Part shown: in pieces, positions 1-38,810 of the stretch | How the letters are laid out: each line of letters opens with the position of its first letter | Numbering within the stretch: the stretch's first letter is position 1 | Source: Escherichia phage CICC 80001 | Sequence record: NC_027387.1 | DNA: 38,810 bases | Direction: 5' to 3' (one strand) | Notes under the pieces: model-generated | The model's input: only the letters and a program-made list of their open reading frames with translations | Database searches by the model: none | Told to the model about the DNA's origin: nothing | Position numbers and translations under genes: made by a program

Positions 1-1254
1 CGTGAAGCTGACCGTTCCAAATCTGAGGCCAATCGTGCTAAAGGTTATGCTGATAGTATGATAGAAAGTGTTGAGACAGCCAAAGGTCACGCCGACCGTT
101 CCAATAAGGAAGCTAATCGTGCTCGTGATGAGGCTGACCGTGCTGCTGGAGAAGTCACTAAGGCCGCTGCACATGTTGTCACCGCTGAGGAACATGCTGA
201 CCGGGCTGACACTGAGGCTAACCGTGCGAAGAGTGAAGCTGACCGCGCGAAGATTGAGGCCGATAAGTTGGGTAACACGAACGCACTTGCTGGGACCATT
301 GACAGAATTGAGGATAATGATGTCCACTTCAAGGGTAAAATAGGCGCGCGCTCTTTGAATCTACATAATGATGCAAAAGGTGAGGGTACACAGCCAGTTG
401 ACCAAGTGTGGAACCAATGGCGCGCACAGGACTCTAAGGTTACTGCATGGGAACAGTGGATTCGGGCTGGAAGTAAGCGCATGGACTACTATGTTTTCAC
501 TAGTACGGACCCGGAAACTTGGCCTGAAGGTCGCTCCAATAGTAAAGGTAATCATACATTTTATGGGGACGTTCTATTTGCTGGTGGTAACGTGGAGATG
601 CACGGCAACCTTTATGTTAATGCAGTCGATTCTAAAAATACCGTTGCCCTTACAAATGTGGGTGCTAGCTTTAGGGCAAAAACACAAGGTGGCGGATGGA
701 GCCAGTGGACAGGAAGTCAATCTCCAGACGTGCAGCATGACATTGAAGGGCAGGGTGATACAAGCTATCTCCTTGAGCGAGCTACAATTTGGGGCAAAGA
801 ACACCTGTACGGTAAATGCTTGTACAACAATGGTACTGGTGCAAACTTCTTTATCCGTCACTACCTTCGCAATGCTTACTTTGATGTGTGTTCGGATGGT
901 TCCCTTAAAAGCTCTACGGGGTGGTACATTCCATCAGATGGTAACTTATTCATCAAGAAGTATGACTCGTACATTGATACTTGGGTCAACAGACGCTTGG
1001 GAGAACATGCCTACACTAAAAGTGAAGTGAACAGCCTAATTAGTAGTAACAAACAAGGGGCGAATAGTGTCTATTGGGGTCCGTCGCGATCCGTTGCAAG
1101 GAAATACTATAGGTCGCAAGAAATCCTAGCTGGGGGTGGCGAGGCTATGACTGGCATGGTGTTTGATGAACAAAACATAGTGAGTGGTGTGCGTTTCTGT
1201 GCTCTGTGGATAACCTTCCACGATGGTACAAAGCGTATCGTTGCATCACAATAA
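1..1254 (+). CDS. 17: Tail fibre protein gp17, C-terminal part (5' end runs off the window start; continues from the N-terminal part at 38238..38810 if the genome is circularly permuted)
   Basis: Frame-1 ORF open from nt 1; EADR/EANR coiled-coil repeats then a globular tip; architecture parallels T7 gp17 (EADKL..NxLAGxIDxxDxxxVxxKG) but the distal domain is diverged; followed by the holin gene as in T7. Confidence 0.85.
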   Translation, partial: READRSKSEANRAKGYADSMIESVETAKGHADRSNKEANRARDEADRAAGEVTKAAAHVVTAEEHADRADTEANRAKSEADRAKIEADKLGNTNALAGTIDRIEDNDVHFKGKIGARSLNLHNDAKGEGTQPVDQVWNQWRAQDSKVTAWEQWIRAGSKRMDYYVFTSTDPETWPEGRSNSKGNHTFYGDVLFAGGNVEMHGNLYVNAVDSKNTVALTNVGASFRAKTQGGGWSQWTGSQSPDVQHDIEGQGDTSYLLERATIWGKEHLYGKCLYNNGTGANFFIRHYLRNAYFDVCSDGSLKSSTGWYIPSDGNLFIKKYDSYIDTWVNRRLGEHAYTKSEVNSLISSNKQGANSVYWGPSRSVARKYYRSQEILAGGGEAMTGMVFDEQNIVSGVRFCALWITFHDGTKRIVASQ

Positions 1255-1267
1255 AGGAGACAATAAA

Positions 1268-1597
1268 ATGCGTAAGTTCTACAACTGGAAGTACAGCATT
1301 ACTTATGCTTATGGACAACCAACGTATGACGTGATTGACAAAGAAGGTAACGACTGGTATCGCCTGATGTGTGAACTTGAAGTTCGCCCTGAGAAGTGGG
1401 TCGTTGGGGTTAACCCCAACGGCTCAGTCTCTTGGTGGTCTGATGGTTCCGTAGATGGTACATATGCGCCGCCTGAAGGTGGCATGGTGATTGTTTGTGA
1501 AGAGTTCCTACCTGATTATGGACAACGCTGGGTGGACTCTGAGGACCGCTGGGAGTTGATTTCAGAAGCGACTAAAGCACCTAAGGAGGGTAGTTAA
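1268..1597 (+). CDS. Hypothetical protein (110 aa) between tail fibre and holin; possible tail-fibre accessory or assembly protein
   Basis: ATG at 1268 preceded by AAGGAG; stop directly abuts holin start (TAAATG at 1595-1600); no counterpart at this position in T7 as I recall it. Confidence 0.6.
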   Translation: MRKFYNWKYSITYAYGQPTYDVIDKEGNDWYRLMCELEVRPEKWVVGVNPNGSVSWWSDGSVDGTYAPPEGGMVIVCEEFLPDYGQRWVDSEDRWELISEATKAPKEGS

Positions 1598-1801
1598 ATG
1601 TTATCGCTGGACTTCAACAATGAACTCGTAAAGGCGGCTCCAATTGTCGGGACGGGTGTGGCTGATGGTGCAGCCCGTCTCTTCTTCGGATTGTCGCTAA
1701 ACGAATGGTTTTACGTTGCTGCTATCGCCTATACAGTGGTTCAAATTGGTGCCAAGGTAGTCGATAAGATGATTGACTGGAAGAAAGTCAATAAGGAGTA
1801 A
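1598..1801 (+). CDS. 17.5: Holin gp17.5 (class II holin)
   Basis: 67 aa MLSLDFNNEL..., near-identical to T7 gp17.5; hydrophobic segments. Confidence 0.95.
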   Translation: MLSLDFNNELVKAAPIVGTGVADGAARLFFGLSLNEWFYVAAIAYTVVQIGAKVVDKMIDWKKVNKE

Positions 1802-1806
1802 CACAT

Positions 1807-2076
1807 ATGGAAAAAGATAAGAGCCTTATTACGTTCTTAGAGATGTTGGACACTGCGATGGCTCAGCGTATGCTCGCTGATTTATCCAACGACGAGAGGC
1901 GGACTCCACAACTCTACAACGCCATCAATAAACTGTTAGACCGCCACAAGTTCCAGATTGGTAAGTTGCAGCCGGATGTTCACATCTTGGGTGGCCTTGC
2001 TGGTGCTCTTGAGGAGTACAAAGAGAAAGTCGGTGATAACGGTCTTACAGACGACGATATTTACACGTTACAGTGA
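1807..2076 (+). CDS. 18: Terminase small subunit / DNA maturation protein gp18
   Basis: 89 aa MEKDKSLITFLEMLDTAMAQRM..., matches T7 gp18. Confidence 0.95.
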   Translation: MEKDKSLITFLEMLDTAMAQRMLADLSNDERRTPQLYNAINKLLDRHKFQIGKLQPDVHILGGLAGALEEYKEKVGDNGLTDDDIYTLQ

Positions 2077-2077
2077 T

Positions 2078-2112
2078 ATACTCAAGGCCACTACATATAG
2101 TGGTCTTTATGG
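2078..2112 (+). promoter_or_regulatory. RNase III processing hairpin (R18.5-like)
   Basis: ACTCAAGGCCACTACATATAGTGGTCTTTATGG inverted repeat, T7 R-site type. Confidence 0.5.
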
Positions 2113-2170
2113 ATGTCATTGTCTATACGAGATGCTCCTACGTGAAATCTGAAAATTAACGGGAGGCATT

Positions 2171-2614
2171 ATGCTGGAATTTTTACGTAAGCTGGTCCCT
2201 TGGGTTCTCGCTGGGATGCTATTCGGATGGGGATGGCAACTTGGGGCTGACTCAATGGACGCTAAATGGAAACAGGAGGTACAGAATGAGTACGTTAAGA
2301 GAGTTGAGGCTACAGCGAGCACTCAAAGAGCACTCAATGAAATATCGGCTAAGTATCAAGAAGACCTTGCCGCGTTGGAAGGGAGCACTGATAGGATTAT
2401 TACTGATTTGCGTAGCGACAATAAGCGGCTGCGCGTCAGAGTCAAAACTACCGGAACCTCCGATGATAAGTGTGGATTCGAGCCTGATGGTCGAGCCGAA
2501 CTTGACGAGCGAGATGCTAAAAGTATTCTCGCAGTGACCAAAAGGGGTGACGCGTGGATTCGCGCTCTACAGGACACTATACGCGAACTACAGCATAAGC
2601 AGGAGGTTAAGTAA
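2171..2614 (+). CDS. 18.5: Inner-membrane spanin gp18.5 (Rz-like)
   Basis: 147 aa [22 protein letters not shown]..., matches T7 gp18.5. Confidence 0.9.
2286..2537 (+). CDS. 18.7: Outer-membrane spanin gp18.7 (Rz1-like), embedded in gene 18.5 in another frame
   Basis: [15 protein letters not shown]... with lipobox-like [11 protein letters not shown]; matches T7 gp18.7; listed ORF 2241..2537 trimmed to the conserved Met. Confidence 0.8.
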   Translation: MSTLRELRLQRALKEHSMKYRLSIKKTLPRWKGALIGLLLICVATISGCASESKLPEPPMISVDSSLMVEPNLTSEMLKVFSQ

Positions 2615-4386
2615 TGAGTAAAGGTGTATCCGCTCAGTCCAATCGTAATGCGCTCGTTGTGGTGCAACTAAAGGGTGACTTCGTGGCGTTCCTGTTCGTC
2701 TTATGGAAGGCGTTAAACCTACCAGTACCTACTAAGTGTCAGATTGATATGGCTAAGGTATTGGCGAATGGGGATAACAAGAAGTTCATCCTACAGGCTT
2801 TCCGTGGTATCGGTAAGTCATTCATCACTTGTGCGTTCGTTGTGTGGTCATTATGGAGAGACCCTCAGTTGAAGATACTCATCGTATCAGCCTCTAAGGA
2901 ACGTGCAGACGCTAACTCCATCTTCATCAAGAACATCATTGACCTACTGCCGTTTCTCAGTGAGTTGAAGCCGAGACCCGGACAGCGTGACTCTGTGATT
3001 AGCTTTGACGTTGGTCCTGCTAGTCCTGACCACTCTCCTAGTGTGAAGTCAGTAGGTATCACTGGTCAGTTAACTGGTAGCCGTGCTGATATTATCATTG
3101 CGGATGACGTTGAGATTCCGTCTAACAGTGCAACTATGGGTGCCCGTGAAAAGCTATGGACTCTCGTTCAGGAGTTCGCTGCGTTGCTTAAACCACTGCC
3201 TACTTCTCGTGTCATCTATCTGGGTACACCTCAAACTGAGATGACTCTCTATAAGGAACTTGAAGATAACCGTGGGTACTCCACTATCATCTGGCCTGCT
3301 CTGTATCCAAGGACTCGCGAGGAAAACCTCTACTACTCTCAGCGTCTGGCACCAATGCTCCGTGCTGAGTACGAGGAGAATCCTGAGGCGCTCGCTGGGA
3401 CTCCTACGGACCCTGTGCGCTTCGACCGTGATGACCTGCGTGAGCGTGAGTTGGAATACGGTAAGGCTGGCTTCACGTTACAGTTCATGCTTAACCCGAA
3501 CCTGAGTGATGCCGAGAAGTACCCTCTGAGGCTCCGTGACGCTATCGTAGCGGCCTTAGACTTAGAGAAGGCCCCAATGCATTACCAGTGGCTTCCGAAC
3601 CGTCAGAACATCATTGAGGACCTTCCTAACGTGGGCCTTAAGGGTGACGACCTGCATACATACCATGAGTGCTCAAATAACTCTGGTCAGTATCAACAGA
3701 AGATTCTGGTCATTGACCCAAGTGGTCGTGGTAAGGACGAAACAGGGTACGCTGTACTGTACACCCTCAATGGTTACATCTACCTAATGGAAGCTGGTGG
3801 TTTCCGTGATGGCTACTCCGATAAGACCCTTGAGTTGCTCGCTAAGAAAGCTAAGCAATGGGGAGTCCAGACGGTTGTCTACGAGAGTAACTTCGGTGAC
3901 GGTATGTTTGGTAAGGTGTTCAGTCCTATCCTTCTTAAACACCACAACTGTGCTATGGAAGAGATTCGTGCTCGTGGTATGAAGGAGATGCGTATTTGTG
4001 ATACCCTTGAGCCAGTCATGCAGACTCACCGCCTTGTCATTCGAGATGAGGTCATTAGGGCCGACTACCAGTCCGCTCGCGATATAGACGGTAAGCATGA
4101 CGTTAAATATTCACTGTTCTACCAGATGACCCGTATCACTCGTGAGAAAGGTGCTCTGGCACACGATGACCGATTGGATGCCCTTGCGTTAGGCATTGAG
4201 TATCTCCGTGAGTCCATGCAACTGGATTCCGTTAAGGTAGAGGGTGAAGTGCTTGCTGACTTCCTTGAGGAGCACATGATGCGTCCTACAGTAGCTGCTA
4301 CGCATATCATTGAGATGACTGTGGGAGGAGTTGATGTGTACTCTGAGGACGATGAGGGTTACGGTACATCTTTCATTGAGTGGTGA
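2614..4386 (+). CDS. 19: Terminase large subunit / DNA maturation protein gp19
   Basis: 590 aa, near-identical to T7 gp19 over most of its length. Confidence 0.97.
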
Positions 4387-22537: not shown

Positions 22538-22560
22538 TAATACGACTCACTATAGGGAGA
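22538..22560 (+). promoter_or_regulatory. T7-type promoter phi6.5, embedded in an RNase III hairpin
   Basis: TAATACGACTCACTATAGGGAGA flanked by ACTCAAGGTCCC...GGGGCCTTTATGATTATTAC. Confidence 0.9.
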
Positions 22561-37200: not shown

Positions 37201-38165
37201 ATGCTGCGCGTCAAGGTATGCTTGGGGACGTTATTAGTGCCACCTTAACAGGTAAGACTACCCGCTGGGAGAAAGAGGGATTCCTTCGCGGTGCCTCCAT
37301 AACTCCTGAGCAGATGGCTGGTATCAAGTCTCTCATCAAGGAACACATGGTCCGTGGTGATGACGGGAAGTTTACCGTTAAGGACAAGCAAGCGTTCTCT
37401 ATGGACCCCCGCGCTATGGACTTATGGCGACTTGCTGACAAGGTAGCTGATGAGGCAATGTTACGTCCGCATAAGGTGTCCTTACAGGATTCCCATGCGT
37501 TCGGAGCATTAGGTAAGATGGTGATGCAGTTTAAGTCTTTCACTATTAAATCCCTCAACTCTAAGTTCGTGAGAACCTTCTACGATGGCTACAAGAACAA
37601 CCGAGCGATTGACGCTGCGCTTACTGGTATCATCTCTATGGGTCTCGCTGGTGGTTACTACGCTATGGCTGCACATGTCAAAGCGTATGGAATGCCTAAG
37701 GAGCAACGTAAAGAATACTTGGAGCGCGCATTGGACCCAACCATGATTGCACACGCTTCGTTGTCTCGTAGTTCTCAATTGGGTGCTCCTTTGGCTATGG
37801 CTGACCTAGTTGGCGGTATCTTAGGGGTCGAGTCCTCCAAGATGGTTCGCTCCACGATTCTACCTAAGGACACCATGAAGGAACGAGACCCAAACAAACC
37901 GTACACCTCTAGAGAGGTAATGGGAGCTATGGGTTCGAACCTTCTGGAGCAGATGCCTTCCGCTGGCTTTGTGGCTAACGTAGGGGCTACCTTAATGAAC
38001 GCTGCTGGTGTGGTTAACTCACCTAACAAAGCAACCGAGCAGGACTTCATGACTGGCTTAATGAACTCGACCAAAGAGTTAGTACCTAACGACCCTCTTA
38101 CTCAACAGCTTGTGTTGAAGATTTATGAGGCGAATGGTGTTAACTTGAAGGAGCGCCGGAAATAA
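34209..38165 (+). CDS. 16: gp16 internal core protein with N-terminal lytic transglycosylase domain
   Basis: 1318 aa, same length as T7 gp16; N-terminal SLT motif ...TESRFQPTAKSKTGPLGMMQF. Confidence 0.97.
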   Translation: MDKYDKNVPSDYDGLFQKAADANGVSYDLLRKVAWTESRFQPTAKSKTGPLGMMQFTKATAKAMGLRVTDGPDDDRLNPELAINAAAKHLAGLVGKFDGDELKAALAYNQGEGRLGNPQLEAYSKGDFASISEEGRNYLRNLLDVAKSPMAGQLETFGGITPKGKGIPADVGLAGIGHSQKVTQELPESTSFDVKGIEQEAPAKPFAKDFWETHGETLDEYNRRSTFFGFKNAAKAELSNSVAGMAFRAGRLDNGFDVFKDTITPTRWNSHIWTPEELEKIRTEVKNPAYINVVTGGSSENLDDLIKLANENFEADSRAAEAGLGAKLSAGVIGAGADPLSYVPMVGVTGKGFKLVNKALVVGAESAALNVASEGLRTSVAGGDADYAGAALGGFVFGAGMSAISDAIAAGLKRSKPEAEFDNEFIGPMMRMEARETARNANSTDLSRMNTDGMKFEGEHNGIPYEDLPTEKGAVVLHDGSVISVSNPINPKTLKEFSEVDPEKAARGIKLAGFTEIGLKTLGSDDADIRRVAIDLVRSPTGMQSGSSGKFGATASDIHERLHSTDQRTYNDLYKAMSDAMKDPEFSTGGAKMSREETRYTIYRRAALAIERPELQSALTPSEKIVMDIIKRHFDTKRQLMENPAIFGNTKAVSIFPESRHKGTYVPHVYDRHAKALMIQRYGAEGLQEGITRSWMNSYVSRPEVKARVDEMLKELHGVKEVTPEMVEKYAMDKAYGISHSDQFTNSSIIEENIEGLAGIENNSFLEARNLFDSDLSITMPDGQQFSVNDLRDFDMFRIMPAYDRRVNGDISIMGSTGKTTKELKDEILALKAKAEGDGKKTGEVHALMDTVKILTGRARRNQDTVWETSMRAINDLGFFAKNAYMGAQNLTEIAGMFATGNVRALGHGIPILRDTLYKSKPVSAKELKELHASLFGKEVDQLIRPKRADIVQRLREAADTGPAVANIVGTLKYSTQELAARSPWTKVLNGTTNYLLDAARQGMLGDVISATLTGKTTRWEKEGFLRGASITPEQMAGIKSLIKEHMVRGDDGKFTVKDKQAFSMDPRAMDLWRLADKVADEAMLRPHKVSLQDSHAFGALGKMVMQFKSFTIKSLNSKFVRTFYDGYKNNRAIDAALTGIISMGLAGGYYAMAAHVKAYGMPKEQRKEYLERALDPTMIAHASLSRSSQLGAPLAMADLVGGILGVESSKMVRSTILPKDTMKERDPNKPYTSREVMGAMGSNLLEQMPSAGFVANVGATLMNAAGVVNSPNKATEQDFMTGLMNSTKELVPNDPLTQQLVLKIYEANGVNLKERRK

Positions 38166-38185
38166 TACGACTCACTATAGGGAGA
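38163..38185 (+). promoter_or_regulatory. T7-type promoter phi17
   Basis: TAATACGACTCACTATAGGGAGA. Confidence 0.9.
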
Positions 38186-38237: not shown

Positions 38238-38810
38238 ATGGCTAACGTAATTAAAACCGTTTTGACTTACCAGTTAGATGGCTCCACTCGTGATTTCAAT
38301 ATCCCGTTTGAGTATCTAGCCCGTAAGTTCGTAGTGGTAACTCTTATTGGTGTAGACCGCCGTGTTCTCACGTTAAATACAGATTATCGCTTTGCTACTC
38401 GTACTACTATCTCACTGACTAAGGCTTGGGGGCCAGCGGATGGCTATACTACCATCGAGTTACGTCGAGTAACCTCCACGACCGACCGCTTGGTTGACTT
38501 TACGGACGGCTCAATCCTCCGTGCGTATGACCTTAACGTTGCTCAGATTCAAACGATGCACGTAGCGGAGGAGGCTCGCGACCTAACTGCGGATACCATC
38601 GGTGTCAACAGTGATGGTCACTTGGATGCCCGTGGTCGTAAGATTGTGAACCTTGCGTTCGCTACCAGTGACTATGATGCTGTCCCTCTGAAACAGATTA
38701 AGGACCGTGAGTCCTCTGTGTGGAATGCTGTTACCAAAGCTGATGAACATGCTGACCGCTCTACTCGTGAAGCTAACCGCTCTCGTGATGAGGCTGACCG
38801 TGCTAAGCGT
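38238..38810 (+). CDS. 17: Tail fibre protein gp17, N-terminal part (3' end runs off the window; 191 complete codons)
   Basis: MANVIKTVLTYQLDGSTRDFNIPFEYLARKFVVVTLIGVDRRVLTLNTDYRFATRTT... matches the T7 gp17 tail-attachment domain, then diverges into EADR/EANR repeats. Confidence 0.95.
   Translation, partial: MANVIKTVLTYQLDGSTRDFNIPFEYLARKFVVVTLIGVDRRVLTLNTDYRFATRTTISLTKAWGPADGYTTIELRRVTSTTDRLVDFTDGSILRAYDLNVAQIQTMHVAEEARDLTADTIGVNSDGHLDARGRKIVNLAFATSDYDAVPLKQIKDRESSVWNAVTKADEHADRSTREANRSRDEADRAKR

Follow-up and report, generated by a model that had tools for sequence, protein, structure and literature searches.

The tail fibre protein gp17 of Escherichia phage CICC 80001 is probably a mosaic of four modules, in which the T7-type tip has been replaced by a module of ~60 residues that was acquired together with a Tfa-like gene. 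The DNA analysed (hereafter the window) is the whole stretch of 38 810 nucleotides of record NC_027387.1, a complete T7-like genome whose record was opened within gene 17. Multiple alignment and per-segment identities resolve gp17 into four independently assorting modules, and by searches of 50 697 phage records the distal region is not one block. No relative has all four: IME390 carries modules 1-3, and Bas104 modules 1, 2 and 4. The proposal of the initial annotation, namely that a foreign distal part had reached a conserved T7 anchor by module exchange, is upheld, and the tip is not essentially identical to that of T7 or T3.

Organization of gene 17 and the record join

Gene 17 is cut by the ends of the window into two parts, 38238..38810 (191 stop-free codons) and 1..1254 (417 codons plus stop). 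Joined, they are in frame and give a gp17 of 608 amino acids with its stop codon at 1252-1254. The depositors' fibre annotation, 58..1254 (398 amino acids), covers the 3' piece only; the distal 327 amino acids of gp17 agree with this annotated protein at 100% identity along their whole length. The whole anchor and one of the three shaft repeat units fall outside 1-1254, the interval to which the initial annotation assigned its observation. The features of the locus are as follows.

38163 to 38185, + strand: phi17-type T7 RNA polymerase promoter, exact match to TAATACGACTCACTATAGGGAGA, 5' of gene 17
38238 to 38687, + strand: gp17 amino acids 1-150, N-terminal tail-anchor domain (module 1), from PF03906 and identity to T7
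38688 to 38810, + strand: gp17 amino acids 151-191, beginning of the 'HADR' coiled-coil shaft (module 2), including repeat unit 1
38751 to 38804, + strand: shaft repeat unit 1, amino acids 172-189, ADRSTREANRSRDEADRA
1 to 270, + strand: gp17 amino acids 192-281, remaining shaft (module 2) with repeat units 2 and 3, beginning at the join
91 to 144, + strand: shaft repeat unit 2, amino acids 222-239, ADRSNKEANRARDEADRA
196 to 249, + strand: shaft repeat unit 3, amino acids 257-274, ADRADTEANRAKSEADRA
271 to 1062, + strand: gp17 amino acids 282-545, enlarged pyramid-like domain of Berlinvirus/FE44 type with extended helical linker (module 3), from amino acid identity
1063 to 1254 (coding ~1063-1251), + strand: gp17 amino acids 546-608 and stop, short C-terminal tip module VYWGP...AGGGE..TG...VRFCALWITFHDGTKRIVASQ (module 4), probably replacing the T7-type tip
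1268 to 1597, + strand: gene for a 109-amino-acid Tfa-like protein with the predicted fold of the Mu U N-terminal domain, between gene 17 and the holin gene
1598 to 1801, + strand: gene 17.5, holin, right-hand boundary of the swapped stretch

The surroundings of the gene are those of a T7-like phage. Gene 16 ends at 38165, the promoter lies at 38163-38185 and the holin gene at 1598-1801, so that gp17 holds its T7-like position with one extra gene between. Ten T7-type promoters with at most three mismatches occur in the window, five of them perfect, where none is expected by chance. The genome backbone is ~92% identical to, and collinear with, many Teseptimavirus genomes, T7 included, and nucleotide similarity to the backbones of T7, IME390 and C5 returns at 1595-1599 (89-92%). 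The holin gene of Salmonella phage C2 likewise begins at 1598, as if both records had been opened at a common origin, but C2 carries another fibre piece and the agreement is taken as a coincidence.

The join of the two parts of gene 17 deserves scrutiny of its own. The window ends within the repeat array, its end and start have no terminal overlap, and CGT is duplicated across the end/start join. All relatives with the same shaft (IME390, FE44, Sxt1, Carena, Yep-phi, Bas103 and Bas104) have a segment of 60 nt (20 amino acids, EADRSTQQAG.ST.QAVESK.) that the window lacks at precisely this point, and a direct repeat, (G/C)AAGCTGACCG, flanks the gap. Moreover, identity to IME390 falls from 95% to ~78% across the join. 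Taken with the annotation of the 398-amino-acid 3' piece alone, these features might suggest a chimera of two phages, for instance from a mixed lysate, in which the halves of gene 17 do not come from one gene. Such an origin is unlikely, since the same shaft type and repeat unit stand on both sides, and since the nucleotide alignments of Bas103 and Bas104 continue across the join save for the 60-nt gap. In addition, the frame is kept and the remaining genome is collinear at ~92%. Considerably more likely, if a little short of even odds, is that 60 nt were lost or collapsed locally at the join. The join would then be either a repeat-mediated deletion in the phage or a place where the record was broken and collapsed at the repeat; it may be an assembly artefact, with 60 nt of gene 17 perhaps hidden by the record ends. 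In any case, the mosaic of tip and tfa (1023-1597) stands at a distance from the contig ends, and the join does not affect it.

Anchor and shaft

The N-terminal ~150 residues of gp17 had been described as close to T7, and they are: amino acids 1-150 are 93.3% identical to T7 gp17 and 96-97% identical to the fibres of IME390, Bas103 and Bas104. Amino acids 1-155 match the Pfam family PF03906 (Phage_T7_tail) with E 5.9e-66 and 221 bits against a cutoff of 25.2, and the PDB entries of T7 gp17, 7boz and 8e4g, match the anchor.

Repeat units of HADR type follow the anchor, as the initial annotation had also noticed. There are three, each of 18 residues with the pattern ADRxxxEANRx(R/K)(D/S)EADRA, and they lie on a heptad periodicity of EA[N/D]R that occurs eight times, against 0.08 expected; in 20 000 composition-preserving shuffles the count always stayed below eight. 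At the DNA level, a periodicity of 21 nt parallels the seven-residue repeat. Amino acids 151-281 are 76-82% identical to the shafts of IME390, FE44, Sxt1, Carena, Yep-phi, Bas103 and Bas104, and 28% identical to T7 in a forced global alignment. By these identities, the shaft repeats are a trait of the Berlinvirus-type lineage and not a peculiarity of CICC 80001.

The pyramid-like domain and its linker

Beyond the shaft, resemblance to T7 fades. With the distal 327 amino acids as query, BLASTP aligns only the first 25 residues to T7 (E 8e-4) and T3 (E 1e-4), and past these residues no significant similarity to either is found by BLASTP. In a phmmer search of the PDB, the alignment of gp17 with T7 gp17 is confined to amino acids 1-309. 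Furthermore, T7 and T3 are absent among the 60 of 75 tblastn matches listed for the distal query and from the organism summary. The C-terminal strings quoted by the initial annotation are present, and its view that the distal part is unlike T7 agrees with these searches.

The region nevertheless has close relatives. Module 3 (amino acids 282-545) shares 72-73% amino acid identity with the fibres of IME390, FE44, Sekstaphage-1 (Sxt1) and Carena, 38% with Yep-phi and at most 24% with others. The four closest relatives all retain a T7-type tip. The fibre of Sxt1 has the same architecture, with an enlarged pyramid, a linker insertion of 27 amino acids and a modelled T7-type tip (PMC11680406). The AlphaFold2 monomer model of gp17 amino acids 282-608 reaches a pLDDT of only 40 with a nine-sequence alignment, and the putative pyramid fold of module 3 is taken from the homologous region of Sxt1, which the same paper reads as an expanded pyramid. 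For comparison, the pyramid of T7 gp17 spans amino acids 371-447 and forms an interdigitated trimeric beta-pyramid.

The initial annotation had treated everything distal to the repeats as a C-terminal globular region equivalent to the tip. This holds for the last ~60 amino acids, which are the exchanged part, and fails for amino acids 282-545, which are a Berlinvirus-type pyramid-like domain with linker.

The C-terminal tip

The receptor-binding tip of T7/T3 type, the beta-sandwich of T7 amino acids 465-553 (PDB 4A0T), has no counterpart in gp17: BLASTP, phmmer against the PDB and hhalign do not find this ~90-amino-acid domain. In T7 and in the relatives of module 3, the tip follows the consensus ..AGGGVSV.LSQDVRWRTIWI..GGWL.F.I..NG..F.N..D..SVP..I.V.N, and gp17 of the window stops ~45 amino acids short of this tip in the alignment.

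What stands in its place is a module with a family of its own. Its identity with the tips of C5, Koku, Bas104, P0061 and L018 is 44-64%, against 14-27% for T7-type tips. In a wider comparison, it is 37-51% identical to the tips of phages C5, N30, JB01, 04922B, Bas104, Koku, YSYH and UFV01, and 58-64% identical to those of metagenomic relatives. The family is conserved, and its closest members, from independent phages and from metagenomes, end in KR(I/L)VASQ. No match to the module is found in a PDB profile search or a Pfam scan.

Two candidate relationships were considered for the module. A truncated T7-type tip is not shown by hhalign, where the profile of the module aligns with the T7-type tip profile at a probability of only 16% over 15 columns. 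Homology to the C-terminus of Mu S is not supported either, with a probability of only 0.4% against the tips of Bas103 and Mu S; the Bas103 tip, by contrast, matches Mu S with E 6.3e-7.

A Tfa-like gene downstream of gene 17

Between gene 17 and the holin gene lies a second reading frame, 1268..1597, which is part of the exchanged unit and which the initial annotation overlooked. An AAGGAG Shine-Dalgarno sequence stands 8 nt 5' of its ATG at 1268. A longer reading of 124 amino acids from the ATG at 1223, overlapping gene 17, was rejected: the homologues all start with MR(K/V)F/Y and the Shine-Dalgarno sequence precedes 1268. In the public annotation, the product is an uncharacterised protein, and most records of its homologues read hypothetical protein. 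T7, IME390, FE44, Sxt1 and Yep-phi have no such extra gene; in these phages gene 17 is followed immediately by the holin gene.

Homologues of the frame are 82% identical in Citrobacter phage YSYH and Klebsiella phage Koku, ~55% in E. coli phages C5 and JB01, and 88% in a metagenome; across phage records the range is 48-82%. The tip module and the short frame are adjacent in 12 of the 12 loci inspected (Koku, C5, N30, Bas104, Klebsiella phage 31, Bas103, Erwinia phage Cronus and the metagenomic loci L016-L020). Cronus is a T4-like phage, and in its long-tail-fibre locus the homologue occupies the position of gp38.

The assignment to the Tfa proteins comes from structure comparison and, weakly, from PHROGs. 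The predicted structure of the product has a confident Tfa-like fold, of the type of the Mu U N-terminal domain, at 16% identity to Mu U. Beyond its own family, the BFVD matches at ranks 8-12 are five named tail fibre assembly proteins. Four members of the family match phrog_136, 'tail fiber assembly protein', weakly (E 8e-5 to 8e-3). By sequence, no meaningful matches are found in Pfam or the PDB; for the protein of the window and five relatives, Pfam, including Caudo_TAP (PF02413), gives no match at E<=1. Against the 175-amino-acid Tfa of Bas103, a homologue of Mu U (E 1.4e-10) and of Caudo_TAP PF02413 (7.9e-10), the family aligns in hhalign with E 2e-4 and a probability of only 47%.

Tfa proteins bind the fibre through their N-terminal domain and trimerise through C-terminal helices, and the Tfa of Mu remains on the virion (PMC9608196). 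All 54 of 54 homologues of the present frame have 125-138 amino acids and end in a helix of ~20 amino acids (..EDxxADLxxLxAEL..). In the window, an in-frame deletion of ~57 nt removes this C-terminal helix. By analogy with known Tfa proteins, the lost helix would trimerise the chaperone, and the protein of the window may be impaired, may work differently or may serve solely as a cap that stays bound. An attempt to explain the truncation as a crossover scar, with 1568-1597 as T7-type intergenic DNA, gave no convincing alignment.

Breakpoints of the mosaic and its origin

Mosaic gp17 genes are commonplace. The boundaries of the present one are visible at the nucleotide level: similarity to IME390 ends at 1023 and returns at 1595, and similarity of Koku type reaches 81.5% over 1205-1567. 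Base composition over 1-3000 gives no foreign-DNA signal. The searches for relatives covered 50 697 phage records and 1.84 billion representative proteins, and within them no other fibre joins a pyramid of FE44 type to this tip. In total, eight proteins match at E<=1e-3 in the exhaustive search of the 1.84 billion proteins. A word-indexed protein search gave four fibre matches and missed FE44 and IME390, so that its counts are uninformative on rarity. Another mosaic is P0016, which combines a T7-type shaft with the beginning of an FE44-type pyramid and an unrelated end.

In the simplest origin, a single recombination would have brought together an IME390-like phage, donor of modules 1-3, and a phage resembling C5, Koku or Bas104, donor of module 4 and tfa. 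The proposed crossovers lie near 1023-1083 and near 1567-1597.

A simpler reading treats everything beyond the shaft as a single receptor-binding tip, swapped onto a T7 anchor and directed at a new LPS receptor, with no second gene involved. The anchor at 93% identity to T7 and the 327 distal amino acids without significant similarity to T7 or T3 favour this reading, yet it is quite improbable. The distal region is composite, amino acids 282-545 matching fibres that keep the T7-type tip and only 546-608 matching the C5/Koku lineage. The nucleotide breakpoints at ~1023 and ~1595 enclose the gene at 1268..1597, the neighbour of the tip in all 12 loci. Among the phage records and proteins searched, no relative has amino acids 282-608 as a contiguous block of uniform identity without the downstream frame. 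It is scarcely credible that amino acids 546-608 are what truncation or a frameshift has left of a T7-type tip in a crippled fibre, with 1268..1597 spurious or left over: MAFFT does set AGGGxxxTG...VRFxxLWI opposite T7 AGGGVSVTV..LRFRNIWI, and the fibre is 46-59 amino acids shorter than those of IME390 and FE44, but the tip belongs to a conserved family with its own KR(I/L)VASQ ending, its profile barely meets that of the T7-type tip, the downstream frame has 54 homologues, a good Shine-Dalgarno sequence and a confidently predicted Tfa-like fold, and CICC 80001, according to the citation of Xu et al. 2016 in PMC7598189, was isolated as a lytic phage with an L-aspartate-producing E. coli as host.

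Proposed assembly and receptor recognition

In the four-module mosaic, the T7-type anchor would attach gp17 to the tail, the heptad coiled coil of Berlinvirus type would form the shaft, and the enlarged pyramid-like domain with its linker would come next, an arrangement shared with IME390 and Sxt1. On the model of Mu S/U and Pam3 (PMC9608196) and of the prediction for Bas103, the Tfa-like protein would dock onto the C-terminal module of newly made gp17 chains, helping the distal trimer to fold in register, and may also stay attached as part of the distal end. For Bas103, the BASEL paper (PMC11990801) predicts a Mu-like hexamer of its T7-like fibre and Tfa.

With the T7 tip and its host-range loops gone, specificity would have to reside in the new distal end, either alone or together with bound Tfa, and/or in the enlarged pyramid. 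The initial annotation had expected a receptor different from that of T7. This is plausible because the T7-type tip with the loops that determine host range is absent, and a specificity other than that of T7 is likely. Among T7-like phages, Bas102-104 depend on the O16 O-antigen (PMC11990801).

A bolder proposal sees the tip module and the short Tfa as a mobile cassette of two genes, exchanged between podoviruses (T7-like) and myoviruses (the T4-like Cronus). In the window, the Tfa, deprived of its trimerising helix and left with the fibre-binding domain, would then have ceased to be a transient chaperone and would be a permanent distal cap and receptor-binding adhesin resembling gp38, on a T7-like fibre that bears a Berlinvirus-type pyramid as well. 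This proposal is improbable.

The mosaic, as described here, bears on the engineering of host range in T7-like phages, for which the end of the helical linker would be a natural exchange boundary. If tip and chaperone gene move as one unit, transplanting the tip requires the downstream gene too. The public annotation of CICC 80001 can also be corrected, where the fibre is given as a fragment of 398 amino acids and the chaperone-like gene as that of an uncharacterised protein.

Comparison with known systems

With T7 gp17 (PDB 4A0T/4A0U; 7BOZ), the fibre of the window has in common the anchor, the order of anchor, shaft and distal knob, the phi17 promoter and the ~92% backbone. The shaft is 28% and the pyramid 18% identical when the alignment is forced globally, and locally neither matches significantly. 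The tip domain of T7 is absent from the window. T7 also differs in having no gene between 17 and 17.5.

The same HADR shaft, enlarged pyramid-like domain and extended linker occur in IME390/PHB20 (Teseptimavirus), FE44 and Carena (Berlinvirus) and Sxt1 (Teetrevirus). IME390 additionally shares the anchor (96%) and the flanking gene 16 (95% nucleotide identity). The fibres of IME390, FE44, Carena and Sxt1 have 654-667 amino acids, with a T7-type tip of ~75 amino acids after AGGGVSV and the holin gene next. The fibre of the window, in contrast, lacks the T7-type tip and carries a module of 60 amino acids from another lineage, with an extra gene on its 3' side.

The order 17, short frame, 17.5 is the same in phages C5, N30, JB01, 04922B, AnnaIndermaur (Bas104), Klebsiella Koku, Citrobacter YSYH and Serratia UFV01. 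In fibres of C5/Koku/Bas104 type, the pyramid-equivalent is unrelated (at most 21% identity), and the tip comes directly after the connector, without the linker extension of FE44 type. Their short frames encode 125-129 amino acids with the C-terminal helix, which the frame of the window lacks. Compared with Mu S/U (PDB 5YVQ, 8JU3) and with the Tfa of EmilieLinder (Bas103; PMC11990801), the protein of the window has no Caudo_TAP (PF02413) C-terminal domain. Homology between Mu S and the tip of the window is undetectable, whereas the Bas103 tip is detectably related to Mu S.

T7-like phages with a Mu-like Tfa have already been published (BASEL 2025, PMC11990801). What appears to be new, within the phage records and representative proteins searched, is the particular combination of modules, with a pyramid of FE44 type joined to this tip. 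It also appears to be new that a widespread family of short 'hypothetical' frames can be recognised as Tfa N-terminal-domain proteins, and that the frame of the window is a helix-less variant. Collectively, current understanding is not overturned, and each module of the CICC 80001 fibre has documented relatives.

Record ends and promoters

The ends of the record fall within the repeat array of gene 17, which encodes the tail fibre gp17. Exactly at this boundary (38810|1), the record lacks 60 nt that all relatives with the same shaft type possess, and CGT is duplicated across the boundary. Because gene 17 is cut at the record ends, the public annotation of gp17 is limited to a 398-aa fibre fragment (58..1254). 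All ten matches to T7 RNA polymerase promoters, which lie between 4919 and 38185, are on the + strand, and the five at 22538, 25467, 26505, 30872 and 38163 are perfect. This confirms that the promoter specificity of the phage is of T7 type, not T3 type.

A shortened Tfa-like ORF

The following features are concerned.

1268..1597, + strand: Tfa-like ORF, 109 aa
1540-1597: 3′ end of this ORF, with an in-frame deletion of ∼57 nt

Through this deletion, the Tfa-like ORF has lost a C-terminal helix that is kept in 54 of 54 homologues (125–138 aa long). The final 30 nt of the 1540-1597 segment, which match no relative aligned, contain the ribosome-binding site of the holin gene (TAAGGAGG).

Comparison with other phages

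The record of ‘Escherichia phage ST2’ (OM982647.1, 171 kb) is labelled Kagunavirus yet includes a T7-like block, and seems to be a chimera or a mixed assembly. The block contains:

Tfa-like ORF
class II holin
small terminase

The record of Salmonella phage C2 (MN026740.1, compared over 1-1801) is, like that of the window, permuted and starts inside gene 17. Its holin gene has the same coordinate, 1598, as that of the window, probably by coincidence or because both records were oriented to a common reference. The C2 fibre fragment (507 aa) is without similarity to the distal region of the window fibre.

Another fibre with a sub-domain mosaic is the metagenomic protein P0016 (523 aa), built as follows:

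T7-type shaft
∼90 aa resembling the start of the FE44/window pyramid
unrelated C-terminus

The pattern of the ∼90-aa stretch (DDVHFKGRVGARSLTLHNDAKGAGTQPVDQVW...TWPEGRSNGKG) is nearly identical to that pyramid start. The pyramid domain is therefore a site of crossovers too. In the T4-like myovirus Erwinia phage Cronus (MH059636.2, 2008-3893), the long tail fibre protein ends in the window-type tip motif and a short Tfa-like ORF occupies the gp38 position; thus, the tip-plus-ORF pair crosses phage morphotypes.
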